From IMG/VR virus record IMGVR_UViG_2778261571_000004: a stretch of DNA of 64,000 nucleotides; one strand, given 5' to 3'. The notes under the pieces were generated by a model. The model did no database searches. It was not told the origin of the DNA and saw only the letters and a list, made by a program, of their open reading frames with translations. This document shows positions 4,326-62,570 of this stretch, piece by piece. The position numbers were made by a program, and so were the translations under genes. How positions within the stretch are numbered: position 1 is the first letter of the stretch; each line of letters begins with the position of its first letter. The DNA comes from a virus (lineage: Duplodnaviria; Heunggongvirae; Uroviricota; Caudoviricetes).

Positions 4326-4344
4326 ATGATCGTAAGTATGTACT
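4326..4344 (-). promoter_or_regulatory. motif-2 palindrome (GTAAGTA-tg-TACTTAC), approximate
   Basis: Inverted repeat between a terminator and the SD of gene 3893..4288. Confidence 0.4.
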
Positions 4345-4414
4345 TACAATACAAAAAAGCCCCGTAAGGATGGCGGGGCTGTCGTACGGTCGACTAATTA
4401 CCACTTGCACATTA

Positions 4415-4726
4415 TCAGGCTATTGCCATCACTGATGCTCTCTGAATCTCTTGCTGGGCCACGCGGTTAACTTCCATCAAAGCCAGTTCGAGCTGATGTT
4501 CCGGCCACATTCTTTGAAATGCCACCCAGCCTTTTCCACGCTGGCGACGAACATTCATTACATAACGAGTAAAGGTGTTTTTATCGAAAGACACCGCTGT
4601 TTCACGGAACAGACGAATAGAGGTTCCATTGGCAACGATGTCCAGCAAAGTTAATTGAGCAACCAGCGCAGGCTTCTCTTTTCTCTTCTGGTCTTTGTCC
4701 AGACCAAGAACCAATGATTTTTTCAT
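4415..4726 (-). CDS. hypothetical protein (start at Met17 of track ORF)
   Basis: GGAG SD before Met17; motif-1 palindrome about 12 nt upstream. Confidence 0.45.
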   Translation of the reverse strand: MKKSLVLGLDKDQKRKEKPALVAQLTLLDIVANGTSIRLFRETAVSFDKNTFTRYVMNVRRQRGKGWVAFQRMWPEHQLELALMEVNRVAQQEIQRASVMAIA

Positions 4727-4736
4727 CACAACTCCG

Positions 4737-4753
4737 TAAACAACTTGTTTTCT
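4737..4753 (-). promoter_or_regulatory. motif-1 palindrome (AAACAACTTGTTTTC), approximate
   Basis: Recurrent motif immediately 5' of SD. Confidence 0.45.
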
Positions 4754-4879
4754 CAATGGCGTAAATAATACCAATAAGAAAACGGCTACAAAGCATAATG
4801 ATCAGGTGCATGAGCGATATGCAGGTTCCTCCCTGCGGCTATAGAGAAATTAAGCCAGCAATGCTGGCTTTGGTTGGGA

Positions 4880-5209
4880 TTACGCGAATACCTCAAGAAA
4901 CTCCTGAACGTCCCAATGCTGGACGAGGTGAAGATAGACCTTAGAAATCACGTCATTTTCGCTATCGCATGTGAAGTAGTACTTCTGGCTGCGGTTGTAT
5001 GTGTCCACACAAAATTCGCTCATATCCATAAAGTCAGCATCTTCACCCATGTCGCAAATCATCAAAGCAGGTGCGTCATCACGAGTCATCAGCTCAAGCA
5101 CCCACCGCGAATTAATCAGAGTGGAAGACCAACCTTCTAACTCATAAAACTGATCAAACTCTTTTTGAGTTAATTTCTTAATTTGGTTGATGTCGATATT
5201 TGCAAACAT
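4880..5209 (-). CDS. hypothetical protein (start at Met8 of track ORF)
   Basis: AAGGAT SD before Met8; motif-1 about 13 nt upstream. Confidence 0.45.
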   Translation of the reverse strand: MFANIDINQIKKLTQKEFDQFYELEGWSSTLINSRWVLELMTRDDAPALMICDMGEDADFMDMSEFCVDTYNRSQKYYFTCDSENDVISKVYLHLVQHWDVQEFLEVFA

Positions 5210-5220
5210 AAAGCAATCCT

Positions 5221-5237
5221 TAAACAACATGTTTTCT
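5221..5237 (-). promoter_or_regulatory. motif-1 palindrome (AAACAACATGTTTTC), approximate
   Basis: Recurrent motif 5' of SD. Confidence 0.45.
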
Positions 5238-5568
5238 TGATGGTGTTATTATCGCAATAACGCAAAGGCGAAAAAGGATTTTATTCCGGTGAATGTGGTT
5301 TTGGCAGTGAGTTTTCAGGTTCAGTACCGAGTACACTTTTTACATTATTCTGATTTAGTGGCCGAAGGTGGCTGGTGGGCAGAATAATCATCTCCCCGAA
5401 AACCTACTGAAATCGATTGTGACCCGTTGGCTGTCTGGCACAATTACGCTGTAACTGGGCATTCAGAGGGAGTCCAACGGTAAGTTAGTCCGCCTACGTG
5501 AGCGCCTCTCTTCTTCCCGCACATTACAGGTGGATAGCCGCAACTCTCCCTCTCGCTATACCGGTACG

Positions 5569-5700
5569 CCGCCGTTCCTGAACCGGCATCGAGCCTTTTC
5601 CCGAAATCCACACAGGCAACTCGACCGTTTCCCTGAAAACCTCCAGCCGTTCCCCGAAGGCAACCCAGCCGTTTCTGTAGCGGGATGCAGCCTTTTCCCT
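5569..5700. repeat. array of 6 direct repeats (consensus about AGCCGTTTCCCGAAA) at 21-23 bp periodicity, approximate
   Basis: Units at about 5569, 5592, 5623, 5645, 5667, 5688; iteron-like helical phasing. Confidence 0.5.
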
Positions 5701-5849
5701 TATGGACCGGAGGCTGACCGTAGGGGTGTTACGGGGGATAAAATCAGGAGTTGAATAAATACGAAAAAGGAGGCGACACCCCTCCTTCCCTCCCCACTTA
5801 TACATACCTGTCTTGTTCGCTATACATGTTGTGTTTTCTTCGTGTTTTA

Positions 5850-6660
5850 TCTGTCTCAACCTCTCTATAGGCGTTAATGCTCACTCCTTCCAGAACGTTC
5901 TATACGGCGACTAATTCTGTTGGTGAATTGGGTGTGTTGTTCTCTCTGTCGGTGTAAATGGTTTCGTTCGTTTTGCGGTGGTTCTTCTATGGGGTGTTCT
6001 CGTCGTTTTGGTGATTGTTCTTCTCCGTCTATGGAGTAATGGCAGGTGGGCGATTGCTTTCGTTATTGTGTTTGAGTTGTTTGTCTGGAGTGTGTGAAAG
6101 GCTTTTGTAGTTATTCGTGTATTGGGTAATGGCGTTTCCCGTGATTGTTATGTTTCGTGTCTTTTGGGGTTGAGAGAAACCTTGCGGTAACAGGCTTCGT
6201 TGGGGTTTCAGTGATTCTGGTGTTTCTTCGCTGTTTGGGGAATGGCGTGTCGTGGGTATCGCGCGTATGAATGTTTTCGGATTGCCTGTGAAAGTTAGGT
6301 TGGTTGTCCGGTAGCCTGGGAAGAAGAGGTGGGTCTTTTCGGTAGCCTGCCATAAAGAGGTTGGTTGTTTTGGGGAATGGCATATGTGTTATTTAGTTGT
6401 TTTGTTATGCCTGAAAATAAGTTGTTTATATGGTTGTGTAACGCAATGGGAGTGATTTTGAGCGTGTGTTTTTGTTGGTAGTGTGTTGGTCGTCTGTGGT
6501 GAAAATTGGACGCTGTGGCGCTGTCTGCTGCGTAGAATTACGGGTATAAGCAGTGATGTGTGAAAACGTCAATTTTTTAGACCAAATCGGGTGAAAGCGT
6601 TGATGTTTCGTTGATCTGTTATTCAGTTGTTTCCTTGATTGTATAAACAACTATAACTTA
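5850..6660. other. G+T-rich, strand-asymmetric non-coding region with short repeats
   Basis: No credible ORF on either strand; plus strand is strongly G/T-biased; contains the 62-bp element at about 6308..6370. Confidence 0.45.
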
Positions 6661-6781
6661 TTGATATTTAAGGGTGTGATTGCAGGTATGGAAGGAGAGT
6701 AGTGGCGATCAACGGATTCTTATAGAAAAGAATCAAATTGTGACCGCCATTATCAACTGATTGATTTGTTTACTTGTGTAG

Positions 6782-7180
6782 TCAGTTCTCGAAATGAATA
6801 GGGTCAACGTAATGCCGCTCACCGCTTTTACCATTACACAGCACTGTAACTTTCGCCTTTTCACTCCAGGCTGAGTATAGAAAGTTCCCATCAGGTTGAA
6901 CATGGTAACGAGAGAAGTAAACATCGCCGACTGAGGCGTCGAACATGTTCCTATCTTTTTCACTTTGGGCAAGCGAGATGGATATCACCGAATTCCCATT
7001 TGGGGAAACGATTTTAAATTTATTCCCTATATCCATAACAATATTGTAACCAGGTAATTGCTTGTGTGTTTCCGGATCTATTTTCATGCATCGTGGGTAC
7101 ACGATAGTGTTAGGCTCTTCAACTGGCGTGGCATTAGCAGAAAGCACAAAAAATATTAGTGCCAATGGTGCATATTTCAT
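6782..7180 (-). CDS. predicted secreted/periplasmic protein (N-terminal signal peptide)
   Basis: N-terminus MKYAPLALIFFVLSANA is signal-peptide-like; GAGGGA SD. Confidence 0.5.
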   Translation of the reverse strand: MKYAPLALIFFVLSANATPVEEPNTIVYPRCMKIDPETHKQLPGYNIVMDIGNKFKIVSPNGNSVISISLAQSEKDRNMFDASVGDVYFSRYHVQPDGNFLYSAWSEKAKVTVLCNGKSGERHYVDPIHFEN

Positions 7181-7474
7181 TTATCCCTCACAATTTCCAA
7201 TTTTCCAGACCATCGTCTATTTCAGCGTCAGGGTGGAATTGTACCGCATCAAATCCTACATCGAGCACCTTTCGAATGTTCTTGATGGTTTGCTATGTGA
7301 CACCGTAATCACGCAGCTTTTCTTCCCTCCCCTGACTCCCCCATACTCCGTTTCTGTACCCAATTGAGTCCGAGATCGTATGGTGCTCGAAACAGATATT
7401 TGGTAGACACTCAGAGTCATGCTGTGTAACGAGGGTAGGGCTACTAACTGTCGTCTTATACAATTTGGTGAGTT

Positions 7475-7723
7475 TCAGCATTTTACCACCCCGTTCGGAA
7501 ACAACTCATTCGCCGTAGTTGATATAACCTCCCAATTAACGCCGACATCAGCGTTATGGCATTGTCTGATTTTTTGCATCACCTGTACGCATTGTTCATC
7601 AGTGAGATCTGTCCTTACTTCAGCAATATCTTCTTTGTGCCACATAACCATGAGTAAGGGTTCGTCTTCTGGATAGTTTTTCAGTTTCTCGATGATTTCT
7701 TTTGCTGTTCCAAACATCTTCAT
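7475..7723 (-). CDS. hypothetical protein
   Basis: 82-aa ORF, GGAG SD, two motif-1 palindromes upstream. Confidence 0.5.
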   Translation of the reverse strand: MKMFGTAKEIIEKLKNYPEDEPLLMVMWHKEDIAEVRTDLTDEQCVQVMQKIRQCHNADVGVNWEVISTTANELFPNGVVKC

Positions 7724-7727
7724 CTCC

Positions 7728-7744
7728 TAAACAATTTGTTTTCT
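7728..7744 (-). promoter_or_regulatory. motif-1 palindrome (AAACAATTTGTTTTC) abutting the SD, approximate
   Basis: Second copy about 50 nt further upstream (7777..7795), flanking a TTGTTG-17-TATAAG sigma70-like promoter. Confidence 0.45.
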
Positions 7745-7776
7745 TATATGGCTTATTATCTCAATCAACAAAAGGT

Positions 7777-7795
7777 AGAAAACAAATTGTTTTAG
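7777..7795 (-). promoter_or_regulatory. motif-1 palindrome, upstream copy, approximate
   Basis: gaaaacaaattgtttt. Confidence 0.45.
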
Positions 7796-7831
7796 GGCTT
7801 GTGTAAATCAGGAGGGATTGTGTCTATATGA

Positions 7832-7858
7832 AAATGCCCAGCGTATTGCTGGGCATTG
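7832..7858 (-). terminator. metG rho-independent terminator hairpin (gcccagc..gctgggc), approximate
   Basis: Stem-loop followed by T-rich tract immediately after the metG stop. Confidence 0.55.
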
Positions 7859-7876
7859 TGAAGAATGGTTGCTTAA

Positions 7877-9910: not shown

Positions 9911-10067
9911 AGTAGGCATTACTTCTTTGTAGTGAAAAGGGGCTTGATAGTAACAAAATGGCCTTATGTCTGCCATGTGATAACAGCATTTCTCATAAAT
10001 GATTAAATGTCGTAGCTGGAGTACACTACAAGGCGACAATTGCGCAAATTAAAATAAAGGAGACGGG

Positions 10068-11168: not shown

Positions 11169-11205
11169 TAAAAAGGCGGTGCAATGCACCGCCTAATCAG
11201 CTCTC

Positions 11206-11595
11206 CTACATCACGGGACAATCATCAAACTCGCCACTTCTTGCGTCGTTGATAATGTGAGTGATCACACCAAACACGGCATTGCTGCCCGTGCATCCAT
11301 CGTCATCCTTTGGCAATGCTTCCTTCTTACCGGTTCTTAAATCCTCCAGATGCTGACGTGGGTACTTCCGGTATCTTTTTACGCGATATTCCCCATCCAG
11401 AGCGCATACAAGCAGAGAACCATCAACCGGGGTAAGTGAGGAATCGACCACCAGCAATGCACCCTGTAATATTCCCTCACGATGATGACTATCAGCTGCC
11501 CTCATGAAGTAGGTCGCTGAAGGATGTCTAATTATCTGCTGATCAAGAGAAATACGGCTCTCAGCATAATCCGCCGCAGGAGAAGGGAAGCCCAT
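11206..11595 (-). CDS. UmuD'-like S24 peptidase-family protein that begins at the UmuD autocleavage site (no N-terminal arm)
   Basis: Starts M-GFPSPAADY, matching UmuD from Gly25 onward; Ser (ADSHH) and Lys (VKRYRK) of the S24 dyad are present; an in-frame stop lies 4 codons upstream of the ATG. Confidence 0.7.
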   Translation of the reverse strand: MGFPSPAADYAESRISLDQQIIRHPSATYFMRAADSHHREGILQGALLVVDSSLTPVDGSLLVCALDGEYRVKRYRKYPRQHLEDLRTGKKEALPKDDDGCTGSNAVFGVITHIINDARSGEFDDCPVM

Positions 11596-11613
11596 AGCGT
11601 TTTCACCTCAGAA

Positions 11614-11633
11614 TACTGTTTATCCATACAGTA
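11614..11633 (-). promoter_or_regulatory. LexA (SOS) box TACTGTATGGATAAACAGTA upstream of the UmuD'-like gene, approximate
   Basis: Perfect CTGT-N8-ACAG about 20 nt 5' of the GAGGTGA SD. Confidence 0.65.
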
Positions 11634-11759
11634 TACATTAAAGATGCTTGAAGTGTGCAATAGCGCGATGCTTTGCGCTCGCCTGGTGGTGCGTTATTTT
11701 TTGGCTATATCTTCTTTCTGATATACCGGATCGTTTCCTTTTGGCAGCAGGAGGCTTAA

Positions 11760-11957
11760 CTACCGGTAGTGCCGTAGCCGTTCCATGAAATAGGTGCGCA
11801 GGTTCTCAGGTTGCTCACGGGCTACCTGTTCCGCTATGACGGGTATGTTCAATCGCTCTTTGTAGGCAACCCCCCTGGCAGCCAGGTCAACGTTAACTTT
11901 ATTCCTTTCTTCCTGGCTTTTAGCTGCTATGTTCCATTCGTTCATATTAAATCCCAT
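11760..11957 (-). CDS. small hypothetical protein (65 aa)
   Basis: ORF only; no family recognised. Confidence 0.3.
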
Positions 11958-12413
11958 CCAGAATAATTGAATAACGGCTATTATTTAGTCGCCGCAATAT
12001 CTTCAAAGTTTTTTTTCTCACCCCATTGCTTTTTGCGCACAGCTTATCTGGCTTGCGGTGCGCGAAATGTAAATTCGCCTTCAGAGTTATCCACAAAGTT
12101 ATGCACTTGCAACGGGGCCATTTTCCTCATACCGTGTTTGCACACACAGGAAATGGATATTTTATTAATTGAATTTTATTAAATAATAATGATAAGGAGA
12201 AAATTTGAGATGTAATCATGACATTAATAGATAGGGCCTGCATTACAGGCCCCAACTACATCAAGGAATTCACAGTTCCCTGATTTTTATACCGAAAACA
12301 TGTGCCGTAAGTTCACGTTAACGACTTTCTTTCACCGAATCCAACTATATAGAGGTTGGGTTTCTACGTCAACGTGAGAGCACGCAGCTTTACATTAGAC
12401 GAGGATTACCCTG

Positions 12414-13083: not shown

Positions 13084-14642
13084 ATGAAAATGACAAGTAT
13101 TCAACAACGTGCAGAGCTTCATCGTCAAATCTGGCAAATTGCTAACGATGTCAGGGGTTCGGTCGATGGATGGGATTTTAAGCAATACGTTCTGGGCGCA
13201 CTTTTCTACCGTTTTATCAGCGAAAATTTTTCCAGTTATATTGAAGCCGGTGATGACAGTATCTGTTATGCGAAACTGGATGACAGCGTAATTACTGATG
13301 ACATTAAAGACGATGCCATCAAAACTAAAGGCTACTTCATCTACCCCAGTCAGCTTTTCTGCAACGTAGCTGCGAAAGCAAATACTAATGACAGACTGAA
13401 TGCAGATTTAAACAGCATCTTCGTTGCTATCGAAAGTTCTGCTTACGGTTATCCTTCAGAAGCAGACATCAAAGGTTTGTTTGCTGATTTCGATACCACC
13501 AGTAACCGCCTGGGTAACACCGTTAAAGATAAAAATGCCCGCCTGGCTGCGGTTCTGAAAGGGGTTGAAGGGTTAAAACTTGGTGACTTCAACGAACATC
13601 AGATTGACCTGTTCGGTGATGCCTATGAGTTCCTGATTTCTAACTATGCGGCAAATGCCGGTAAGTCAGGCGGTGAGTTCTTTACACCGCAGCACGTCTC
13701 CAGGCTGATTGCACAACTGGCAATGCATGGCCAGACCCACGTTAACAAAATCTACGACCCGGCAGCGGGTTCCGGCTCACTGTTGTTGCAGGCGAAAAAA
13801 CAGTTTGATAACCACATCATCGAAGAAGGCTTTTTCGGTCAGGAAATCAACCATACGACCTATAACCTGGCGCGTATGAACATGTTTTTGCACAATATCA
13901 ACTACGACAAGTTTGATATCAAGCTGGGTAATACACTGACTGAGCCGCACTTCAGAGATGAAAAACCGTTTGACGCCATCGTATCTAACCCACCGTATTC
14001 GGTGAAATGGATTGGCAGCGATGACCCGACGCTGATTAACGATGAGCGTTTTGCCCCGGCTGGCGTTCTGGCCCCCAAATCCAAAGCTGACTTTGCGTTT
14101 GTATTACATGCACTGAACTATCTTTCTGCCAAAGGTCGTGCTGCGATTGTCTGCTTCCCGGGTATTTTTTACCGTGGCGGCGCGGAGCAGAAAATCCGTC
14201 AGTATCTGGTCGATAATAACTATGTCGAAACCGTGATTTCACTGGCACCGAACCTGTTCTTTGGCACCACCATTGCAGTAAACATTCTGGTGCTGTCTAA
14301 ACATAAAACGGATACCAACGTTCAGTTTATTGACGCCAGCGAACTGTTCAAAAAAGAGACTAACAACAATATCCTGACCGATGCCCATATCGAACAGATT
14401 ATGCAGGTATTTGCCAGCAAGGAAGATGTTGCTCATCTGGCGAAATCTGTCACGTTTGAGACCGTTGTCGCGAATGACTATAACCTGTCGGTAAGCAGCT
14501 ATGTGGAAGCGAAAGATACTCGCGAAATTATCGATATCGCTGAGTTGAATGCAGAACTGAAAACCACGGTCAGCAAAATCGACCAGTTGCGTAAAGATAT
14601 TGATGCGATTGTGGCTGAAATTGAAGGCTGCGAGGTGCAGAA

Positions 14643-14646
<4 letters not shown>
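13084..14646 (+). CDS. hsdM: Type I restriction-modification methyltransferase subunit HsdM (Type IC, EcoR124-family)
   Basis: 520 aa; NPPY catalytic motif (NPPYSVKW), AdoMet motif [10 protein letters not shown]; matches my recollection of EcoR124 HsdM. Confidence 0.9.
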
Positions 14647-15890
<1,244 letters not shown>

Positions 15891-16011: not shown

Positions 16012-19000
16012 ATGACTCATCAAACACACACCATTGCTGAATCCAATAACTTTATCGTCCTTGATAAGTACATCAAAGCTGAGCAAACAAGCGACAGCTA
16101 CCAGAGCGAATCGGACCTGGAACGTGAACTGATTCAGGACCTGCGGAATCAGGGTTATGAATTTATTTCCGTAAAATCACAGTCGGCAATGCTGTCCAAT
16201 GTTCGGGAACAGCTTCAGAGCCTCAATGGTGTGATGTTTAATGACAGCGAGTGGCGGCGCTTCACGGAGCAGTATCTGGACAATCCCAGCGATGGTATTC
16301 TGGATAAGACCCGTAAAATCCATATCGACTATATCTGCGACTTTATTTTTGACGACGGGCGTCTTGAGAACATCTATCTGATCGATAAAAAGAATCTCAT
16401 GCGCAACAAAGTGCAGATTATCCAGCAGTTTGAACAGGCAGGTTCTCATGCTAACCGTTATGACGTCACGATCCTGGTTAATGGCTTGCCTCTGGTGCAA
16501 ATCGAACTGAAAAAGCGCGGCGTGGCGATTCGTGAGGCTTTCAACCAGATACATCGTTACAGTAAAGAGAGTTTTAACAGCGAAAACTCCCTGTTTAAGT
16601 ATCTGCAACTGTTTGTCATTTCTAACGGCACCGATACCCGTTATTTTGCCAACACAACAAAGCGCGATAAAAACAGTTTTGATTTCACCATGAACTGGGC
16701 GAAATCAGACAACACGCTGATTAAAGACCTCAAAGACTTTACCGCTACCTTTTTCCAGAAACATACTCTGCTGAATGTTCTGGTGAACTACAGCGTGTTT
16801 GACAGTAGTCAGACGCTACTGGTGATGCGACCGTACCAGATTGCCGCCACCGAGCGCATTCTGTGGAAAATTAAGAGCTCCTTTACAGCGAAGAACTGGT
16901 CAAAACCGGAAAGCGGTGGGTATATCTGGCACACTACCGGTTCTGGTAAAACCCTTACCAGCTTTAAAGCCGCGCGTCTGGCAACAGAGCTGGACTTTAT
17001 TGATAAAGTCTTCTTTGTGGTCGACAGAAAAGACCTCGATTACCAGACCATGAAGGAATATCAGCGTTTTTCGCCAGACAGCGTCAACGGCTCGGAAAAT
17101 ACCGCAGGCCTTAAACGAAATCTGGATAAGGACGATAACAAAATTATCGTCACTACTATTCAGAAACTCAATAACCTGATGAAAGCAGAAAGCGACCTGC
17201 CTGTATATAATCAGCAAGTGGTGTTCATATTTGATGAATGCCACCGCAGCCAGTTTGGAGAAGCGCAGAAAAACCTGAAGAAGAAATTCAAACGCTATTA
17301 TCAGTTTGGTTTTACCGGCACCCCTATTTTCCCGGAAAACGCCTTAGGCTCAGAAACAACCGCCAGCGTATTTGGTCGTGAATTGCATTCGTATGTAATT
17401 ACCGATGCGATTCGTGACGAAAAAGTGCTCAAATTCAAGGTGGACTACAACGATGTGCGGCCACAGTTTAAGTCTTTAGAGACAGAAACTGACGAGAAAA
17501 AACTAAGTGCGGCTGAAAATCAGCAGGCGTTTCTTCATCCCATGCGTATTCAGGAAATCACGCAATATATTCTGAATAATTTCCGCCAGAAAACTCACCG
17601 TACCTTCCCTGGCTCAAAAGGTTTTAATGCTATGTTGGCAGTGAGCAGCGTGGATGCCGCGAAAGCCTATTATGCGACGTTTAAACGGTTACAAGAAGAA
17701 GCCGCTAATAAATCGGCTACCTATAAACCGCTGCGTATTGCGACAATCTTCTCCTTTGCCGCTAATGAAGAACAAAATGCCATTGGTGAAATTTCCGATG
17801 AAACTTTTGATACCAGCGCAATGGACAGCAGTGCTAAAGAGTTTCTGGACGCTGCAATTCGTGAATATAACAGCCATTTTAAAACTAACTTTAGCACCGA
17901 CAGTAACGGTTTTCAGAACTACTATCGTGATTTAGCCCAGCGGGTTAAAAATCAGGATATCGATCTGTTAATTGTCGTTGGGATGTTTTTAACCGGCTTC
18001 GACGCTCCAACATTGAACACGCTATTCGTCGATAAAAACTTGCGTTTTCACGGCCTGATGCAGGCATTTTCCCGCACCAACCGTATTTATGATGCAACTA
18101 AAACCTTCGGTAATATCGTCACTTTCCGGGATCTGGAACGCTCAACCATCGATGCCATAACGCTGTTTGGTGACAAAAACACCAAAAATGTAGTGTTAGA
18201 AAAGAGTTATGCAGAGTATATGGAAGGCTTTACTGATGCTGCTACAGGTGAAGCTAAACGCGGCTTTATGGCAGTAGTTTCAGAACTGGAACAACGGTTC
18301 CCTGACCCTGCCAGTATTGAAAGTGAAAAAGAGAAGAAAGACTTCGTTAAACTGTTTGGCGAATACCTGCGTGCCGAGAACATCCTGCAAAACTATGATG
18401 AATTTGCCACGCTGAAAGCCCTGCAACAAATCGATCTTAGCGATCCTGTTGCGGTAGAAAAATTCAAAGAAGAACATTATGTGGATGATGAAAAGTTCGC
18501 TGAATTGCAAACGATTCGTCTCCCTGCTGAACGCAAGATTCAGGATTATCGTTCTGCCTATAACGATATTCGTGACTGGCAGCGCCGCGAGAAAGAAGCT
18601 GATAAAAAAGAAAAATCAACCACTGACTGGGATGACGTGGTTTTTGAGGTCGATTTGCTGAAGTCTCAGGAAATAAACCTGGATTATATCCTTGGACTGA
18701 TTTTCGAACACAACAGACAAAATAAAGGCAAGGGCGAAATGATCGAAGAGGTCAAACGCTTAATTCGTTCAAGCCTGGGGAACCGGGCGAAAGAGGGCCT
18801 GGTGGTCGATTTTATTCAGCAAACGAACCTGGATGATTTACCAGACAAAGCCAGCATCATTGACGCGTTCTTTACCTTTGCTCAACACGAACAGCTACGT
18901 GAAGCAGAAGCGTTGATTAAAGAAGAAAATCTCAATGAAGAGGCGGCGAAACGCTATATTCGCACGTCTTTAAAACGCGAATACGCCACCGAAAATGGCA

Positions 19001-19128
19001 CAGAATTAAACGAGACATTACCAAAACTTAGTCCGTTAAACCCGCAATATAAAACGAAAAAACAGACGGTTTTCCAGAAAATCGTCACGTTTATTGAAAA
19101 GTTCAAAGGAGTAGGTGGGCAGATATAG
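16012..19128 (+). CDS. hsdR: Type I restriction endonuclease subunit HsdR (Type IC)
   Basis: 1038 aa; SF2 helicase motifs (TGSGKT, DECH) and N-terminal nuclease domain; length matches EcoR124 HsdR as I recall it. Confidence 0.9.
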
Positions 19129-20381: not shown

Positions 20382-20383
20382 AA

Positions 20384-22798: not shown

Positions 22799-22943
22799 GT
22801 GGACTCCATCCAGTGTCAGAAAGAGTTGCGGCTGGCGATTGCCAGCCGCCTTTCTCGTTCCATCCTGGAACTGTGTCTTACCGACACATTGTCATCCTGA
22901 CGCTGATAAGATACATGATTTAAAATGATAGGTAAACACTTAC

Positions 22944-24350: not shown

Positions 24351-24535
24351 GTTGGTTTCCTTAAAGTGGTTCATAAAATCGATTTTAAAGCGTCTGGGAA
24401 GGGGTTCTAGTGGATTCTGTAGTGATGTTCAGGTCTGGAGTCTCTGATACAAAACAGCCTGCTTCCGTATATTAATAATTAATATGTAGTTATTTATATA
24501 TACAGAAGCAGGCTAATTACAGACGCCAGAACAAA

Positions 24536-25140: not shown

Positions 25141-25160
25141 ATAGGTAAGTGATTACCTAT
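25141..25160 (-). promoter_or_regulatory. motif-2 palindrome (ATAGGTAAG-tg-aTTACCTAT) upstream of Dam-family gene, approximate
   Basis: Inverted repeat about 12 nt 5' of the start. Confidence 0.4.
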
Positions 25161-29979: not shown

Positions 29980-29998
29980 AGATAAGTAATTACTTATT
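29980..29998 (-). promoter_or_regulatory. motif-2 palindrome (GATAAGTA-at-TACTTAT), approximate
   Basis: About 15 nt 5' of the ThyA-like start. Confidence 0.4.
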
Positions 29999-30136
29999 CA
30001 TCGTGTGAGTTTACATTCATTGAGAGAACAAGACCAGACAGATAAAAAAATGGTGGCCATAGGCCACCAAAACGAATAGTCATTCCAGAGTTTTATTACG
30101 CATGTTAAATATACACAGATAGATAACTACCTACAA

Positions 30137-34648: not shown

Positions 34649-34695
34649 GTATCACCAAATAAAGAGGGCCACTAAATATAGTGGCCCATGTTAAT

Positions 34696-34715
34696 AGATA
34701 AGTACTTACCTATCA
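34696..34715 (-). promoter_or_regulatory. motif-2 palindrome (GATAGGTAAGTACTTATC) upstream of nrdA, approximate
   Basis: Followed in transcript sense by hairpin gggccact..agtggccc. Confidence 0.4.
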
Positions 34716-39265: not shown

Positions 39266-39519
39266 GTGTTTTTCCTTTGTGGTTATTTTGATACAAATTC
39301 TAAGAGCAATGAGGAGGTAAACAACTATGCATAACGGTATGTTAGGAATGAAACGAGCGCCTTAATATACAAAATTTATAAGTAAGTATATACCTATTTA
39401 TCGTGGCGTAACTTTGCTTGTCTGTATGACTAAAAATAAGACAGGATCACTGTAGAACGCTATGAGAGCTATTTTGAGGGGGCGTAGATTCTATCTACGC
39501 CAATATACGATCTGGAGGG

Positions 39520-42707: not shown

Positions 42708-42883
42708 GCTGCCACCTCTTTGATTACATCAAATGCTGAATTAAATACGAGCACGATAGCCAAAGCGTTTATGACTACGTCGTTCACCGGGGAAAAGACT
42801 TTACGAATGACACCAGTGAAAATGCAGTCGATGACAAAAGCTATTGAAACGATGAGTAACAAGTATTCAATAAAAATCTTCAT
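42704..42883 (-). CDS. small membrane protein (about 59 aa), approximate
   Basis: Hydrophobic product; stop overlaps ATG of 42372..42707 (ATGA); not in ORF track. Confidence 0.35.
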   Translation of the reverse strand: MKIFIEYLLLIVSIAFVIDCIFTGVIRKVFSPVNDVVINALAIVLVFNSAFDVIKEVAA

Positions 42884-42922
42884 GATAGGTAGATACTAAC
42901 TTATATAAATTTTACTGTAAAC

Positions 42923-43198: not shown

Positions 43199-43253
43199 GT
43201 GTTTTTCCTTTTGTGGTTAGTGTTTACTTATTTTGTTAGTTATGAATAGGCGA

Positions 43254-48400: not shown

Positions 48401-48517
48401 GTGTTTCTCCTTATTGTGATTTGGCCGATGGCGCTATGCGCGTTGGGCTTTCGTTCATTCGTGGCTCTTTCGAGCTGTTAAATGATAGATCAGTACTTAC
48501 TTATTATCTATCAAAAA

Positions 48518-48949: not shown

Positions 48950-49157
48950 TCTAATAGGTTCCTACTTATAAAATCTGTATCAATTATATCAAACAGAGAA
49001 CGGGTTTATGGCGTCATGTCAACTTTGTTCAGGGGAAGATATTGAGATCACCGAAGATAATTAGTTGTCTTATTTTGGTAAGCTGTGCTGACCATCTTTA
49101 GGTCACATACATGAGATGGATGGGGGTGTGGCATGAACGGATGAAATTCAGTCGCCG

Positions 49158-49186: not shown

Positions 49187-49203
49187 ACTATTATCGGAGG
49201 CGA

Positions 49204-50052: not shown

Positions 50053-50381
50053 TGATGCCCGCCAATTGGCGGGCATCTGTTCTCTGTAAAGGTGTCTGGC
50101 ATCGTCTGGTTCGTTAACGTTTACTAAACCAATGGTGACAAAAATTAGTTATCTTTGAAAAATAAAGGTTGCATGAAAAGAAGGGGTATGCGTTAATAGC
50201 ATCGTTGGTTTGCAAGACAGACCTTATGTAAGCAGTTTTAGTAAAGCAGTCTCAGTTCAGTGTTATCTTCTGATTTCCCTTCTTCGTGAGTCTCCTCCTT
50301 AAGTGCCTAAGTAAGTCCCAATCTATACAGATCAAATTCTCGCCGCACTATGTGGCTCACAAAATTAAGAAGGTAATATCT

Positions 50382-50597
50382 ATGTCTAATAAAATGACTG
50401 GTTTAGTAAAATGGTTTAACTCTGATAAAGGCTTTGGCTTTATTTCTCCTGCTGATGGCAGTAAAGATGTTTTTGTACATTTTTCGGCAATTCAGAGTAA
50501 TAATTTCCGCACTTTGGAAGAAGGCCAGCAGGTCGAATTCTCTATCGAGAATGGTGCTAAAGGCCCAGCAGCAGCAAATGTCGTTGCTCTAAGCTGA
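50382..50597 (+). CDS. cold-shock protein, CspA family
   Basis: [20 protein letters not shown]...[11 protein letters not shown]1/RNP2 motifs; long 5' leader. Confidence 0.85.
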
Positions 50598-50873
50598 TTC
50601 AACGCTGATGATCCTCATTTCTACAATAACGAAGACGGTGTAAGCCTGAGTGGATAGATTTGTAGGATTGTACAAGTTGAATAAATTAGCATGGTAAGGC
50701 CATGCTAATTAAATCGACACAACGGCCAGTTTATTCCATAAAAGTGAATTGCCCATTGTGGCGAAATGCGGGGTTGCCGCATGAATAGTCAAAGGCAGAA
50801 GCTAACTGCCGGCATGGCAAAACAAAGTGCGTAAGAGGAGTGACTTCCTCAACAAGCGCCATAATTCTTTATA

Positions 50874-50896: not shown

Positions 50897-50900
50897 TTTA

Positions 50901-54586: not shown

Positions 54587-54588
54587 GA

Positions 54589-55824: not shown

Positions 55825-55882
55825 GCGTTTTTCCTTTGTTCTCTAATGAGCGTTCAACTTCTTATATAAATATATCATCATC

Positions 55883-55903
55883 TATCGTAAGTGGTTACTT
55901 ATC
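55883..55903 (-). promoter_or_regulatory. motif-2 palindrome (GTAAGT-ggt-TACTTATC) upstream of CobS-like gene, approximate
   Basis: Inverted repeat in intergenic region. Confidence 0.35.
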
Positions 55904-55919
55904 ATTAAGGCTGTTTTGT

Positions 55920-58028: not shown

Positions 58029-58039
58029 GGCTAATCCTT

Positions 58040-58056
58040 TGTTATGAAAACAAATT
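58040..58056 (-). promoter_or_regulatory. degenerate motif-1 (AAAACAAATTATTT), approximate
   Basis: 5' of CobT-like start. Confidence 0.3.
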
Positions 58057-58126
58057 ATTTACTAGTGTGTTTAATGTAGCACTGCGCGAACAGGGAACTA
58101 AGCCATTCGCGCAGGGAGAAGAGGGG

Positions 58127-58339
58127 TTAACAGATTCTGACGGCTAAAGACCCGGAGCCGGTATTGAGAAGCGTGAAGCGTTTGTTGTTAAGTTCGAATA
58201 TAAATCCAGTTGTGTCATTCACACCAACCTGAATCTGCTCATTCGGTAGATCGGTGAGGATGTCAGCTACACACTCATCAGCTAATTTCTGTACGTGTCC
58301 GATCTCAAGAGCGATTAGGCTGGAAATAGTGGTGTTCAT
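58127..58339 (-). CDS. small hypothetical protein (70 aa)
   Basis: Divergent from HTH regulator; weak SD. Confidence 0.3.
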   Translation of the reverse strand: MNTTISSLIALEIGHVQKLADECVADILTDLPNEQIQVGVNDTTGFIFELNNKRFTLLNTGSGSLAVRIC

Positions 58340-58545
58340 TCAATCAATCCATTCTAACTTATACTATGGTAAGGAATACTACTAAAATTTGTATCAATAC
58401 TGAATACATTCATATCATATGCAAGTTGATTTTCTTACCTGTTTTGGGCTAATTTTTCTCCGTGCAATGGCCTTTAACCGGTCTTTTAAGTGCCTATCGA
58501 AAAAAATGATAATAGCTTTACAACCCTAACCTTTGATGTAATATC

Positions 58546-58561
58546 GGTAAGCACTTACCAG
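58546..58561 (+). promoter_or_regulatory. motif-2 palindrome (GGTAAG-ca-CTTACC) about 30 nt upstream of the HTH regulator gene, approximate
   Basis: Perfect 6-bp arms. Confidence 0.45.
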
Positions 58562-58590
58562 AGAGAATTGAACGCGCAAAGGTTGTAACC

Positions 58591-58977
58591 ATGTCTGATA
58601 ACAAGATTGAATTTATAGAAAGTCGCTACGCTGCTTTTATCGCAGGGTTGATTGAATCCTCACCTATGAGCCAGGCCCAGATAGCCAAAACAATTGGGTA
58701 TAAAAACGCCAACAACCTTTCTTTAATTAAAAGCGGCAAAATTCCTTTGCCTATCGATAAGGTTCGTCCGCTGGCGCTGGCACTGGGTATTGAGCCAAGT
58801 CGTCTTATGATGATGGTGCTGGAAGAACGCCAACCTGAACTCGCAGCATTTTTATACAAAGAAGGCACCGCTCCTCTTAACGAGGACGAAAAACAGGTTC
58901 TTGCTGCATATAACGAGCGATTCGGTAAAGAGAAAGGCGCATCACAAAAGGTTGTTGAGGCCATAAAGTCTCTATGA
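58591..58977 (+). CDS. HTH (XRE-family) transcriptional regulator, repressor-like
   Basis: SQAQIAKTIGYKNANNLSLIKSGK helix-turn-helix; plus-strand, convergent with integrase. Confidence 0.6.
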   Translation: MSDNKIEFIESRYAAFIAGLIESSPMSQAQIAKTIGYKNANNLSLIKSGKIPLPIDKVRPLALALGIEPSRLMMMVLEERQPELAAFLYKEGTAPLNEDEKQVLAAYNERFGKEKGASQKVVEAIKSL

Positions 58978-60075
58978 AAAATTTACACGAATAAGCTCTG
59001 TTGATAGACGATCTCCCTTAAATTTGTGGTCAATTTCGTCTAAATCCGGTTGCTCTACGATTGATGCGATGTACGTCGAGAAACTTTCTAAGGCGTCTCG
59101 CATCTCGTCCATATAATCGTGCCGGTCGTAGACCCGATCTATCCCCTCAAGACTGTGGTTCATGATTTTACGTGATACCTCCTGGCTTATGCCTAATGCT
59201 GGGAAGTAACTACGCGCAGTACGGCGCAAATCTCGGGGTGTAAATGGCTCAAGCTCCATCAGTTCTGGTCGTTCCAGAATACGACGTAATGCCTGGGCTA
59301 TTGCCACTTTAGACATAGGAAGGTCTTTCCCGATTTTTTTATTCGAAGGCACGAGCCACTGGCTGTCTTTACCATATTCGAACAACTCTTCAATACAAGT
59401 GCGCATTAATGAGCTTAAAGGCAGAGAATGCTCACGGGCAGATTTGTTCCTCTTGCCTTGATTCCAAACCCCACGCTTAAGATTGAACTCACTTTTTTTA
59501 GCCCGCAGTACTTCGTCAGGTCGTCTTGCGGATACAAGACATAGCCTGGCAGCCCATTTTGTACCAGCACACACATTGAAGTAGTCCCATATATTCCAGA
59601 ACACCCATACCTCTGCGTCGGTCAGCTTCCGCTCGCGAGGTGTGGGCTTTGCGCCACCGGCAACTTTGTTAAGTGACATATCGTTTAACGGTGACACGTC
59701 TATCATCCCCTGGAAGGCGCACCAGCTAAGGAACTGCTTCATCAGAGAGAAAACGCGGCGGCCCATAACAATTTTGCCATCCAGTATTAGTGGGTTGACC
59801 AGTTGGTTCACCATGAACCTATTAATGTCACTTACTTTTACATCGGCAATGTGCGGCAAAACATGTATCAAAATACAATGAACAGCGATCTCTGGCCGAC
59901 GTCTGGTTATCAGCAGAGATAAGCGAGTGAATAACATGAATGCGTCCGAGAATCTCATGTCATTGCTAACCTGCGAGATCATAACGGCCTGCATTTGAGA
60001 TGCTCTTTCGAGATACTCTATCGCCTCTTTTGAGGTGTTCTCCGCAGCGCGTGCTCTGTCAAAGCTATTTTTCAT
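58972..60075 (-). CDS. tyrosine recombinase / integrase
   Basis: C-terminal catalytic blocks (ARRPDE, RDLRRTA, NHS, VYDRHDY). Confidence 0.65.
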   Translation of the reverse strand: MKNSFDRARAAENTSKEAIEYLERASQMQAVMISQVSNDMRFSDAFMLFTRLSLLITRRRPEIAVHCILIHVLPHIADVKVSDINRFMVNQLVNPLILDGKIVMGRRVFSLMKQFLSWCAFQGMIDVSPLNDMSLNKVAGGAKPTPRERKLTDAEVWVFWNIWDYFNVCAGTKWAARLCLVSARRPDEVLRAKKSEFNLKRGVWNQGKRNKSAREHSLPLSSLMRTCIEELFEYGKDSQWLVPSNKKIGKDLPMSKVAIAQALRRILERPELMELEPFTPRDLRRTARSYFPALGISQEVSRKIMNHSLEGIDRVYDRHDYMDEMRDALESFSTYIASIVEQPDLDEIDHKFKGDRLSTELIRVNFS

Positions 60076-60171
60076 ATGACAATCACCGAGTTACGCCGAT
60101 GCACTGTATAAGTAAACAGTATATTAGGCATAGATTCTTATAGGATCAAGAGTAAAAGTAACTCATTTTCA

Positions 60172-60206
60172 GCAATGATTCCATACATAGTAGGTATGGA
60201 ATCATT
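60172..60206. promoter_or_regulatory. perfect 12-bp-arm palindrome ATGATTCCATAC-N7-GTATGGAATCAT upstream of integrase, approximate
   Basis: Half-site ATGTATGGAATCATTT recurs at about 61987..62007 and 62997..63017. Confidence 0.4.
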
Positions 60207-60285
60207 TTGACGTTGTTTTTTGAATTTTAAGGGAAACGGGAGTGAGTTTGGTGGGAATAAAAACGGCTCCTGTGAGCCGTTAAAA

Positions 60286-60531
60286 TCAGAGGGTGCTGAC
60301 GTATGCAGCCAGTTCTGTGTATCCGCCAATCGGCTGGCCATCGATCAGCACTTGGGGGATAGTCTCTACCGGTTTACCAACAATTTCACTTAGTTTTTCC
60401 TTGTCGATACCGGCAGTGGTGATGTCGATGTACTCATAATCACCGTAGCCATGTCCCTTTAGTTGCTTCGCCAGCTCGACCGCACGTTTGCAGTATGAGC
60501 AGTTATCTCGTCCGTAGATAGTGATCGTCAT
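60286..60531 (-). CDS. glutaredoxin (phage NrdC-like)
   Basis: CSYC active site, PQVLIDGQPIGGY glutathione-binding-type motif; ATGA coupling with upstream gene. Confidence 0.75.
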   Translation of the reverse strand: MTITIYGRDNCSYCKRAVELAKQLKGHGYGDYEYIDITTAGIDKEKLSEIVGKPVETIPQVLIDGQPIGGYTELAAYVSTL

Positions 60532-60878
60532 TGCTTTGCCTCATGCCACTTTTGCTTCAGGAGATAGCCTTCCAGGGGCCAGATTTGATCGATAGCATCT
60601 TTTCGAGCGTACTCGCGACCAACATCAAAGTTGAAGATTTCTGGTCTTACGCACGCAGATTTTCCCGTTACGGTATATCCATTTTTGAGAACCATAACGC
60701 AGAACGTTAAGAGTTTTAACGACTCATGACATTTGTCGATATCTGTTTTTGAATTGTAAACGGAGATGAAGTTATCCCCGTGGCTGGCATCATATGCAGT
60801 GAAATAATGTTCACTTTGAATGAGTTGTTCAATGTGTTCAGGGGTGACTTTTAGTGGTGTGTTATCTTTGCTGGTCAT
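60528..60878 (-). CDS. hypothetical protein (116 aa)
   Basis: AGGAAG SD. Confidence 0.5.
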   Translation of the reverse strand: MTSKDNTPLKVTPEHIEQLIQSEHYFTAYDASHGDNFISVYNSKTDIDKCHESLKLLTFCVMVLKNGYTVTGKSACVRPEIFNFDVGREYARKDAIDQIWPLEGYLLKQKWHEAKQ

Positions 60879-60921
60879 TATTTCTTCCTACAAAGTTCGT
60901 AGACTTGACTCTTTCAGTTGC

Positions 60922-60950
60922 AAAAAAGGGGCCGAAGCCCCTTTGAATTT
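60922..60950. terminator. hairpin terminator (ggggcc gaa gcccc flanked by A-run and T-run), approximate
   Basis: Direct reading. Confidence 0.5.
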
Positions 60951-61100
60951 TGCGCTGAAAAAAAGTGTTGCTAGGATGTTAGCAAGCTATGGTTAAGAAC
61001 GTCTGCCGTAATTGTCTATCACAGCGTTGAGCGGTCTGGTTTATGTTAGCGGAGTCTTAATCTGGGTGATTAAAAGGCCAAACCGCTCAACGCTGTGTCT

Positions 61101-61186
61101 GGCGGAGAGTAATGGAATCGAACCATCATCGCTTGCGCAATGGGACGGTTTTCAAGACCGCTTGAGCACCATGCTCCCTACTCTCC
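61101..61186 (-). tRNA. tRNA-Ser (anticodon UGA), type II with long variable arm, approximate
   Basis: GGTTCGATTCC T-loop, CUUGAAA anticodon loop, 7-bp acceptor pairing, encoded CCA; hand-folded. Confidence 0.55.
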
Positions 61187-61550
61187 GGCCGTTGTGGTGG
61201 CCGGTACTGAATCTCCGGCATACGGTGCAGCCAATTAGGACTACGGACGATCACCGCTCGCGAAAGGGAAGATTTGCGGCCGCATTTCCCTAACATCCAA
61301 GAAAGCTATCGCATCAGTCTGCGAATCCACCACAACGGTAAGATCACTACCTTTCGACCAGTCATTGTGCACATGAACGACGATTAACCGTAATGATCTT
61401 ATCGTTGTGTTGTGAAGCCAGATGCTTATCTTCTGGTTGCTTCAAAGAGCTGCACTTCCTCACAACGGTAAGAGCACTGGTCTGACTCTATCGATTTACG
61501 GGCTTGTGGGTCAGTATCGCCGATTCGCCCAATGCTCTTACCTGTTGTGT

Positions 61551-61626
61551 TGGTGCCGGTTAACGGGATCGAACCGCTGACATCCTGCTTACAAGGCAGA
61601 CGCTCTACCAACTGAGCTAAACCGGC
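61551..61626 (-). tRNA. tRNA-Thr (anticodon UGU), approximate
   Basis: GCCGGTT acceptor, D-arm GCTCAGTTGGTAGAGC, anticodon loop CUUGUAA, GGTTCGATCC, CCA. Confidence 0.65.
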
Positions 61627-61630
61627 AATT

Positions 61631-61717
61631 TGGTGGGGAGTGATGGAGTCGAACCACCCGAGTCGCAATGACAGTAGATTTACAGTCTACCCCGCTGCCC
61701 CTACGGACTAACTCCCC
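61631..61717 (-). tRNA. tRNA-Tyr (anticodon GUA), type II, approximate
   Basis: Anticodon loop CUGUAAA, long variable arm, GGTTCGACTCC, CCA. Confidence 0.6.
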
Positions 61718-61722
61718 TAAAT

Positions 61723-61797
61723 TGGCGATGGTGGGTGGATTCGAACCACCGACCAGTTGGTTAACAGCCAACTGCTCTACCGCTGAGCTACACCATC
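61723..61797 (-). tRNA. tRNA-Asn (anticodon GUU), approximate
   Basis: GATGGTG acceptor, GCTCAGCGGTAGAGC D-arm, anticodon loop CUGUUAA, GGTTCGAATCC, CCA; sequence differs from E. coli tRNA-Asn as I recall it. Confidence 0.7.
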
Positions 61798-62546
61798 AAT
61801 TCAGCACTGCCAGTATTTATTACTCAACAGTGCCAATCGCGACGGTTTAGTTTCTGCCAGGAAACGCACCGCTACTTGCACTTTTCGTTAGTGCCAGACG
61901 CTTTCGACTTCGCTCAATAGTAGAAGGCAAAATCTTTAAGTAGATGATGTTTCTGAGGACAGCACCTACTTTGTAATTTATACAATGTGATGTATGGAAT
62001 CATTTGTTGTGAAAACAGGCACCAATGGCAACAGTGGTTAAACCTACACAACAATCCTGTCTTCACAACGTTGAGGCCACTACTCCGATTGAATGTTTGC
62101 CCAACATGTTACATATCAACGCTCGCCGGTATCTCTGTGAATAGAACCTTAGAATTGATAAAAATGTAATGGCCTCAACGTTGTGTGCTGGCTAACCATA
62201 CCAGCCGGGCTACGTCGCCGCTTTTTAACCCAGTATAAACGACATAATTGAACAAAATGACGTAACAGGATGGGCGGTCAGTGGCTAAGAATCCGGGAGT
62301 CATATGGAGTTGAAAATATACCAACCGCCCATTCTGTTACTTCATCGGAGGGAACATGAATGTTCCCTCCTGCGTTCTGCAATCACACTCGCTCAGTGTG
62401 TCCCATTTCGGTAACGAGGCTGGAAACTGACCTCGCTGGTGTTTGGCTTATTAGGCTACTGCCAGATAGACTTCTTCGTTTGCACTTGTATTTAAGTTCA
62501 AACAGTCGCGTCTCAACGAAAACAAAGTCATCTTATATATAAAAGA

Positions 62547-62570
62547 TAAGTAAGTAAATACTTATCACCA
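62547..62570 (-). promoter_or_regulatory. motif-2 palindrome (GATAAGTA-agtaaa-TACTTATC), approximate
   Basis: Perfect 8-bp arms. Confidence 0.4.

Follow-up and report, generated by a model that had tools for sequence, protein, structure and literature searches.

Dispersed intergenic palindromes in an SSU5-type phage-plasmid are candidate operators of an XRE-fold regulator

Among the closest described systems, the operators of phage 434 have the form ACAA-N6-TTGT, the KorB protein of plasmid RK2 binds 12 dispersed palindromes, and mycobacteriophages of the L5 type carry dozens of repressor sites, called stoperators, in short intergenic gaps of both their early and late regions. In the phage-plasmid P1, the sequence record annotates operators of the C1 repressor at ref, mat, ssb, c4, kilA/repL and lpa. 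Here we compare with these systems a family of palindromes in a 64,000-nucleotide stretch of viral DNA (IMG/VR record IMGVR_UViG_2778261571_000004, hereafter the window). The window shares 98.7% identity with Escherichia phage Cyrano (OV696614), which is an SSU5-type phage-plasmid of E. coli LF82, and judged by its sequence it is itself part of such an element. It corresponds to about bases 37–101 kb of Cyrano read on the opposite strand, which is why most of its genes lie on the minus strand. The choice between plasmid life and lytic growth in SSU5-type and related phage-plasmids is essentially uncharacterised. We present evidence that the palindromes are very probably functional DNA sites for an element-encoded regulator of the lytic operons that co-evolves with them. 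We consider it about an even chance that they are operators of an XRE-fold lysogeny (plasmid-state) repressor, encoded at 58591–58977, that silences the lytic programme.

A preliminary description of this DNA listed eight copies of a palindrome with the consensus GTAAGT-N(1-6)-ACTTAC. A related palindrome can be read directly at each of the eight positions, but the consensus has a single match and is in the wrong register, since all eight copies align gap-free as TARGT-N4-ACYTA (TARG-N6-CYTA). Seven further copies share this fixed register, in which the 14-base palindrome is TAAGT-N4-ACTTA. The same description had asked for motif enrichment statistics, and these are consistent with its view of a protein-type recognition site, that is a candidate operator. 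The window holds 9 exact copies of TARGT-N4-ACYTA where 0.11 are expected, a number reached in 0 of 100 shuffles, and 19 copies against 4.3 expected when one mismatch is allowed. The arms themselves repeat with a period of 4 nt as (TARG)(TAAG)T on the left of the centre and A(CTTA)(CYTA) on the right, giving a long consensus with halves ATAGGTAAGT and ACTTACCTAT. Throughout the window and three full genomes the spacer from TARGT to ACYTA is 0, 4 or 8 and takes no other value, so that the variable N(1-6) spacing proposed earlier is a register artefact of the nested 4-nt arm repeats. Loosening the pattern to TARG-N6-CYTA adds one window match, which is intragenic, and we therefore regard T5 and A10 as part of the motif in the SSU5-type lineage.

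In order to score degenerate copies, we trained a 24-nt matrix on the sites of Salmonella phage SSU5 and Klebsiella phage pJN2-26 only and then ran it on the window. The matrix identifies about 15 window loci, every one of them intergenic, in DNA with a coding share of 81%. Loci above about 13 bits all lie in non-coding DNA, and none falls in the accessory and maintenance block at 5.2–22.8 kb. Shuffled sequences gave a maximum of at most 13.5 bits in 19 of 20 cases and of 20.6 bits in the remaining one. On the gene strand the copies are found between co-directional genes, often 1–24 nt past the upstream stop codon and 2–130 nt before the next start.

A position just past a stop codon is also one where a hairpin acting at the RNA or single-strand level in processing, stability or translation might be found. 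GC-rich hairpins do follow some copies, and the enterobacterial members of this group encode a protein resembling FljA, which is a post-transcriptional repressor. The sequences of the arms argue otherwise. A tally of the variable arm pair in 33 distinct 14-mers gives A/T in 15, A/C in 10 and G/T in 8, with G/C in none, indicating that it is sequence rather than pairing that is conserved. Changes hit either arm singly and are never compensated, mismatches on the sense strand are as common as wobble pairs, and no copy has more than one arm off consensus. This pattern is the opposite of that left by selection for base pairing and thus disfavors a hairpin. As far as sequence can tell, it fits a dimer that requires at least one perfect half-site. 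We also considered the FljA-like protein as an RNA-level binder and dropped it, as its gene is not found by tblastn in the Acinetobacter plasmid described below and there is no pairing covariation. The Hfq-annotated protein of that plasmid aligns with it weakly and in the C-terminal part only. We judge a hairpin very improbable, and the same grade applies to two related proposals taken up in the following paragraphs, namely a repeat spread passively by duplication and a box for a host factor.

Related genomes contain comparable numbers of sites, with 17 motif loci in Cyrano, 20 in SSU5 and 22 in pJN2-26. In these full genomes the motif also precedes portal/head, tail, tail-fibre, holin, helicase/primase, parB-like and tRNA units. 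Because structural, lysis and parB-like operons are included, the regulon appears to be the lytic programme and not the replication and nucleotide-metabolism subset to which it had first been assigned. The register in which the arm centres lie 10 bp apart is present in the enterobacterial genomes at 13 of 17, 16 of 20 and 16 of 22 loci, and in Acinetobacter at 24 of 26. Comparison of the window with SSU5 at eight orthologous sites gives 92.5% identity for the specified core positions, against 45% for the ungapped flanks. Conservation of orthologous positions between diverged flanks disfavors passive repeats. An exact 18-mer scan of IMG/VR returned chiefly SSU5-like contigs, plus isolated chance-like palindromes in unrelated contigs. 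One distant IMG/VR relative (40–60% amino-acid identity) carries a palindrome with halves TTAAGTAAGT and ACTTACTTAA, of which one copy lies before the terminase genes.

More distant lineages carry palindromes of their own. In the Acinetobacter plasmid NZ_CP035046 the TAAGT motif is absent, and 26 loci have the form (TCAG)(TCAG)T and A(CTGA)(CTGA), i.e. TCAG-N6-CTGA, with the 0/4/8 spacing kept. Some of these loci match known gaps, such as the CobT/CobS gap and the region upstream of SbcD. At 22 sites, a second A. baumannii lineage (NZ_CP094284) carries the halves ATTAGTAAGC and GCTTACTAAT, corresponding to TAAG-N2-CTTA, and Klebsiella NZ_CP125183, which represents a third enterobacterial lineage, uses GATAAG-N6-CTTATC. 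Both Acinetobacter lineages have the gene order of the window and each carries its own palindrome in the CobT/CobS gap. Since two different motifs are thus used within one host species, a host factor is excluded as the reader, and the binder should be element-encoded and co-evolving with its sites. True LexA boxes, the kind of site that a host factor would use, occur elsewhere in the window.

We then asked which element-encoded proteins could read the motif. By tblastn, Cyrano and the Acinetobacter plasmid share four kinds of DNA-binding candidate: the helix-turn-helix (HTH) protein encoded at 58591–58977 (48% identity), an 88-amino-acid (aa) winged-helix family represented by CYRAN_123 (45%), two ParB-like proteins, and the small terminase subunit. 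Like the FljA-like protein, CYRAN_37 is not shared. Between the two Acinetobacter lineages with differing motifs, for which we compared 20 proteins, the HTH protein is the second most diverged at 30% identity. A sigma-like open reading frame (ORF) shows 27%, the CYRAN_123 family 36% and the ParB-like proteins 56–65%, whereas the integrase encoded next to the HTH gene is 98% identical. In the four lineages compared, the HTH protein co-varies with the motif. The TAAG lineages have KNANN or KNPNI in the recognition helix, the TCAG lineage has KRPNV, and the helix of the N2 lineage is distinct and shorter. An Asn-to-Arg change in the helix goes along with an A:T-to-C:G change in the half-site, and contacts of Asn with adenine and of Arg with guanine are classic ones. 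The HTH protein is thereby, on sequence grounds, the most likely binder of the motif.

The ParB-like proteins deserve consideration as binders, in which case the sites would belong to a KorB-like global silencer or be bound by some other element-encoded protein of this sort. Both ParB-like genes are conserved in all lineages, SSU5 and Acinetobacter included, and their own operon, which lies outside the window, has the motif directly after TATAAT or TAGAAT, the place expected for autoregulation. Against this, the two ParB-like proteins have diverged far less than the HTH protein between Acinetobacter lineages that differ in both half-site and spacing, and we find this proposal improbable. The sigma-like ORF (L172 15110–15775 and L088 14900–15583 in the two Acinetobacter lineages) encodes 221–227 aa and lies between the CobS-like and PolIII genes. 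Its matches to Sigma70_r2, at 17.9 and 15.4 bits, fall short of the cut-off of 24, and no homolog is present in the motif-bearing enterobacterial genomes; it was therefore dropped as a reader of the motif.

The leading candidate is a 128-aa protein (58591–58977, plus strand; homolog of CYRAN_45) of the XRE or lambda-434-repressor-like HTH type. It matches Pfam HTH_19 weakly (E = 7.8e-4, under the curated cut-off), and PDB profiles match it with E = 0.035–0.07. An AlphaFold2 model has a mean predicted local distance difference test score (pLDDT) of 75, with 84–92 over the HTH. Foldseek matches of this model are the Stl, lambda and 434 repressors, C-proteins (C.AhdI) and HigA, with probabilities of 0.9–1.0 and E values of only 0.04–0.4. 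The model predicts that the protein is of the five-helix XRE/lambda-repressor fold, for which sequence-level evidence is weak. In the LF82 lysogen CYRAN_45 is transcribed 10-fold over the prophage background and has been named a putative repressor, and ciprofloxacin induces Cyrano (PMC9928086).

The HTH gene is preceded by a promoter-like TTTACA-16-TAATAT (58517–58544, plus strand), both hexamers of which are kept in 42 of 42 upstream regions. The palindrome GGTAAGCACTTACC (TAAG-N2-CTTA; 58546–58559, plus strand) begins 2 nt past the -10 hexamer and is consequently centred close to where transcription would be expected to start; it ends 31 nt before the ATG at 58591. The block TAATAT-C-R-R-TAAG-Y-ACTTACCA (TAAG(C/T)ACTTACCA) is invariant among 42 distinct upstream regions, for which the encoded proteins are 56–100% identical. 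The preliminary description had placed a perfect copy of the motif about 30 nt before this gene. The palindrome and its distance stand, but the copy is atypical, being the narrower TAAG-N2-CTTA arrangement; in the common register it has one mismatch (TcGGT-AAGC-ACTTA). Elsewhere, the HTH promoter region of the first Acinetobacter lineage contains a perfect N6 motif and that of the second an imperfect one. The HTH promoter and leader (58523–58590) also contain inverted repeats ACAACCCTAACCTTTG and CAAAGGTTGTAACC that flank the -10 and the palindrome, and separated half-sites, AGGTAAG and CCTTACC, are present at about 58437 and 58370 upstream of a divergent small gene.

The gene adjoins an integrase gene in 865 PLSDB plasmids from Klebsiella, Escherichia, Enterobacter, Yersinia, Salmonella and Acinetobacter. 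In the window the integrase gene (58972–60075, minus strand) converges on the HTH gene so that their 3' ends overlap. A near-consensus LexA box CTGTATAAGTAAACAG (60104–60119) is located 29 nt upstream of the integrase gene, and a CTGT-N8-ACAG box with varying inner bases occupies this place in 69 of 74 homologous IMG/VR loci. SOS-induced antisense transcription through the candidate repressor gene would be a plausible route of induction.

Homologs of the HTH gene, the integrase gene and the neighbouring small gene are all missing from phage SSU5. We considered this absence as a refutation of the autoregulated repressor that had been proposed for this element, and rejected it because the gene lies beside the integrase in the 865 plasmids across genera mentioned above. 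SSU5 may be a repressor-less derivative that lost the gene recently, and an activator encoded elsewhere fits equally well. Given that the HTH gene is ubiquitous elsewhere, SSU5 counts neither for nor against the assignment.

If the HTH protein is the repressor, the system could work as follows. One copy of the palindrome, or two nested copies 4 bp apart, would head almost every lytic-cycle transcription unit, and a dimer would read two arms of 4–5 bp whose centres are 10 bp apart (TARG-N6-CYTA). Bound to sites that overlap or abut promoters, the repressor would block the start or the clearance of host RNA polymerase, and binding to the related site at its own transcription start would provide negative autoregulation. 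Loss or inactivation of the repressor would then allow all units to fire. The identity of the binder, its repressive action and the placement of the sites relative to real transcription starts are what we infer.

In the window, promoter-like matches (at least 9 of 12 positions, gene strand) overlap four sites, and the position of overlap varies: the motif is in the spacer before nrdA and the single-stranded DNA-binding protein (SSB) gene, abuts the -10 at the Dam-type methyltransferase gene, and lies at +1 of the HTH gene. This variation is in keeping with a repressor. It is harder to reconcile with the main competitor of the repressor proposal, a serious rival, in which the palindromes are sites of an element-encoded positive factor and define a phage-specific promoter class with the palindrome in place of the -35 and just upstream of or overlapping the -10, in the manner of the -22 box of P1 Lpa or the T4 MotA box. 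On the HTH promoter, such a factor bound at the start site would shut off repressor synthesis in a Cro-like manner. The obvious candidate is the CYRAN_123 winged-helix protein, whose gene is just upstream of the terminase genes and outside the window.

Several features make the activator attractive. The late promoters of P1 share its half-sites, as AAGTnACTT placed 4 nt upstream of the -10. Many Acinetobacter sites read palindrome-C-TATACT or palindrome-C-TATAAT, at a fixed distance and with weak -35 regions, and a TATCAT or TATGAT often begins with the final TA of the right arm in the enterobacterial copies. SSU5 lacks the HTH gene and keeps all its sites together with a CYRAN_123 homolog. 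The CYRAN_123 family is also common to the Acinetobacter plasmids, it has diverged strongly between their two lineages, and the genes served by the motif resemble the middle-gene set of T4. Other features argue against it. Several copies end 2–18 nt before a start codon (those of the Dam and ThyX genes and of the genes at 42883 and 43198), and a transcript starting downstream of the palindrome would have no ribosome-binding leader there. The position of the motif relative to the best promoter-like hexamers varies as described above, no homolog of P1 Lpa is detected by tblastn, and CYRAN_123 has nearly the same putative recognition helix in the TAAG and TCAG lineages (TKQSIQFSIR vs TKQALQFSIR). 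Furthermore, the -10-like flanks are largely mirror-symmetric parts of the longer palindrome and in the matrix scan antisense hexamers at that position score at least as high as sense ones, which makes these flanks weak evidence for a directional promoter. We regard an activator site of this kind as possible but unlikely.

A more specific version holds that the palindromes form a private promoter class of early and late lytic genes, read by a CYRAN_123 activator that would recruit host RNA polymerase without a -35. Such a class would be analogous, not homologous, to those of P1 Lpa or T4 MotA. Within the SSU5/Acinetobacter supergroup three or more changes of its specificity would have to have occurred, and the period-4 arms would allow two overlapping dimers. 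We find this version rather doubtful.

A number of observations weigh against the HTH protein as a repressor acting at all of these sites. The site in its own promoter has an N2 and not an N6 arrangement, and one rigid dimer could not read both alike; the nested registers may accommodate two overlapping dimers or more than one binding mode. SSU5, which has no HTH gene, still has its 20 loci with arms that are exactly consensus. Canonical sigma-70 promoters by the same 9-of-12 measure overlap only 4 of the approximately 15 window sites. In a promoter matrix scan of 89 sites from five genomes, with signals sought 8–30 nt downstream of the centre, the promoter-like signal per site was about 0.51 on the sense and 0.19 on the antisense strand, which is a modest excess. 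Positional information content and a sigma-70 matrix, applied to the same 89 sites, revealed no sharp -35 or -10 at a fixed offset beyond the palindrome itself. The near-consensus -10 (TATACT or TATAAT) that follows many Acinetobacter palindromes at a fixed distance would suit a promoter-specificity element as well. Finally, the small winged-helix CYRAN_123 family is also strongly diverged (36%) and the sigma-like ORF, which has no enterobacterial homolog, exceeds the HTH protein (27% vs 30%).

Apart from the palindrome at the HTH promoter, the individual copies in the window are all on the minus strand and are as follows. Exact copies number nine. The first, TAAGTACATACTTA (4333–4346), follows a terminator-like hairpin 44 nt before a hypothetical gene homologous to CYRAN_107 and has orthologs at SSU5 93170 and pJN2-26 28036. 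Another, TAAGTGTTTACCTA (22929–22942), lies 1 nt past the stop codon of the RNase H gene, with 130 nt separating it from the gene that follows, and has orthologs at SSU5 79909 and pJN2-26 16847; it was absent from the earlier list, as was TAAGTAGGAACCTA (48955–48968), located 32 nt before a UvsY-like gene. The copy TAGGTAATCACTTA within ATAGGTAATCACTTACCTAT (25146–25159) is 16 nt before the start of an adenine (Dam-type) methyltransferase gene, and a promoter-like TTGCCA-17-AAAAAT ends at its first base. Sixteen nucleotides before the ThyX start is TAAGTAATTACTTA (29983–29996), part of the 16-bp perfect palindrome ATAAGTAATTACTTAT. The top score, 30.2 bits, belongs to GATAGGTAAGTACTTATCTAT (34699–34712), 50 nt before nrdA, which sits in the spacer of a promoter-like TTGATA-17-TAACAT. 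The remaining exact copies are TAGGTATATACTTA (39383–39396), 117 nt before the SbcD start, TAAGTAACCACTTA (55888–55901), in the gap between the CobT-like and CobS-like genes and 63 nt before the CobS-like start, and a copy at 62551–62564 inside the 22-bp palindrome GATAAGTATTTACTTACTTATC (62545–62566), 11 nt past a gene stop. The gene classes assigned earlier to the copies thus hold as named, except that the thymidylate synthase gene is of the ThyX and not the ThyA type.

Five degenerate loci, likewise missing from the earlier list, complete the set. A weak copy at 24483–24496 (15.2 bits), between a methyltransferase gene and the next gene, is only marginally over the typical shuffle maximum. 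The one-mismatch copy TAGGTAGTTATCTA (30120–30133; 16.9 bits) lies 3 nt past the stop codon of a MazG-like gene and before a terminator-like hairpin, and the orthologous positions SSU5 72362 and pJN2-26 9627 hold the exact motif. Two overlapping one-mismatch copies, TATAAGTTAGTATCTACCTATC (42886–42903, starting at 42886 and 42890; 19.4 bits), end 2 nt before a gene for 59 aa; this sequence type also occurs at Cyrano 59408, SSU5 58083 and pJN2-26 104814. A marginal one-mismatch copy (43217–43230; 13.6 bits) is 18 nt before a gene for 91 aa. Two further overlapping one-mismatch copies (48486–48503, starting at 48486 and 48490; 22.3 bits) are 89 nt before the gp32-like SSB gene and sit in the spacer of a promoter-like TAGATA-17-TATCAT.

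Two of these loci adjoin other conserved elements. Between the motif and promoter of nrdA and the nrdA start, a GC-rich hairpin followed by a run of T (GGGCCACTATATTTAGTGGCCC TCTTTATTTG; 34666–34687, minus strand) is conserved in SSU5 and pJN2-26 and resembles a leader terminator or attenuator. The 62551 copy opens a 750-nt non-coding stretch leading to four tRNA genes, and the approximately 750 nt between 62545 and tRNA-Asn (61797) contain no annotated genes. About 57 nt downstream of this copy, at about 62470–62500 on the minus strand, is the 12-mer GACTGTTTGAAC, which occurs once in each of Cyrano, SSU5, pJN2-26 and a distant Acinetobacter plasmid (L088 19492–19503). In every case it is located in non-coding DNA upstream of the tRNA/CobT block, and it could be a conserved RNA or an origin-like element.

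The window differs from Cyrano at 11.6–19.2 kb, at 40.4–42.2 kb and in some smaller segments. Segment 11635–19183 is not in Cyrano; it has three large plus-strand ORFs (13084–14646, 14643–15890 and 16012–19128; 520, 415 and 1038 aa) and no motif copies in or near it. A second LexA-type box, CTGTTTATCCATACAG (11616–11631), is 21 nt upstream of the gene for a 129-aa protein (11206–11595, minus strand) that has an S24 peptidase domain only and is UmuD/HumD-like rather than a repressor. Bases 1–384 (plus strand) begin within the FljA-like gene, whose Cyrano homolog CYRAN_114 matches Pfam Flag1_repress (E = 1e-80) and has a weak Hfq/LSM-like C-terminus; the family name implies a post-transcriptional repressor. 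At 50204–50622 (plus strand), opposite to most genes, a match to the Rfam cspA thermoregulator (187.6 bits) covers a cold-shock-protein-like gene.

Clinical Enterobacterales and A. baumannii commonly harbour SSU5/pHCM2-type elements and the related phage-plasmids of Klebsiella, Yersinia (pMT1) and Acinetobacter, the gene for the candidate regulator is present in about 865–1000 PLSDB plasmids, and published work describes resistance genes carried by phage-plasmids. One recognisable site per lytic unit, together with a named candidate protein, provides an immediate operon map for these elements. The repressor, its sites and the LexA-controlled convergent integrase promoter make up a testable switch. 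In addition, the natural variants of motif and recognition helix provide a basis for studying immunity and heteroimmunity between co-resident phage-plasmids.

A full-text literature search for SSU5 regulation, promoters, repressors and the literal motif strings found no description of these sites. The kind of system is known, while this instance, its period-4 nested architecture and its lineage variants appear to be undescribed. The Lpa-dependent late promoters of P1 resemble it in their AAGT/ACTT half-sites and in having a palindrome just upstream of a -10-like hexamer without a good -35. They differ in that the half-sites are 1 nt apart in P1 as opposed to 0, 4 or 8 nt between 5-nt arms here, and in the distance to the -10, which is not fixed in the enterobacterial copies. 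In P1 the AAGTnACTT element lies near -22, 4 nt upstream of TAnnnT, and no constant 4-nt gap of this kind is found here. TARGT-N4-ACYTA has no match in P1 bases 1–50000, and a tblastn search with P1 Lpa as query had no hit below E = 0.7 in either the window or SSU5, which leaves room for a remote homolog; we rejected homology to Lpa because tblastn found no homolog. Stoperators of the L5 type are likewise numerous and lie in short intergenic gaps of a temperate phage, but they are asymmetric 13-mers of strict orientation that act on elongation, whereas the present sites have a symmetric core and are oriented in their flanks only.

As repressor operators, the palindromes would work like the C1-operator network of P1 or the stoperators of mycobacteriophages. 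In genome organization P1 C1 is a parallel. Both elements are phage-plasmids in which one immunity repressor is thought to control scattered operators before DNA-metabolism and lytic genes, and as in P1 one site recurs in intergenic DNA (about 15 window loci, 17–22 in the three full genomes). P1 operators are 17 bp, asymmetric and read by a C1-family protein, while the present sites are palindromes of 14–22 bp with an XRE-fold candidate. The late operons of P1 are run by Lpa and not by C1 operators, whereas here the motif is also found before structural and lysis operons. Because both the site and the type of protein differ, the system is not a member of the P1 C1 or the stoperator family. In the form of the site a parallel is phage 434 and lambda: the 14-bp core has short conserved palindromic arms of 4 bp set 6 bp apart (4-6-4), their centres about one helical turn from each other, and the candidate protein is predicted to have the same fold. 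It differs from 434 and lambda in that there are 15–26 sites per genome in place of two clusters of three, a peptidase domain is missing from the candidate, and the arms are reiterated with a 4-bp period to give overlapping registers.

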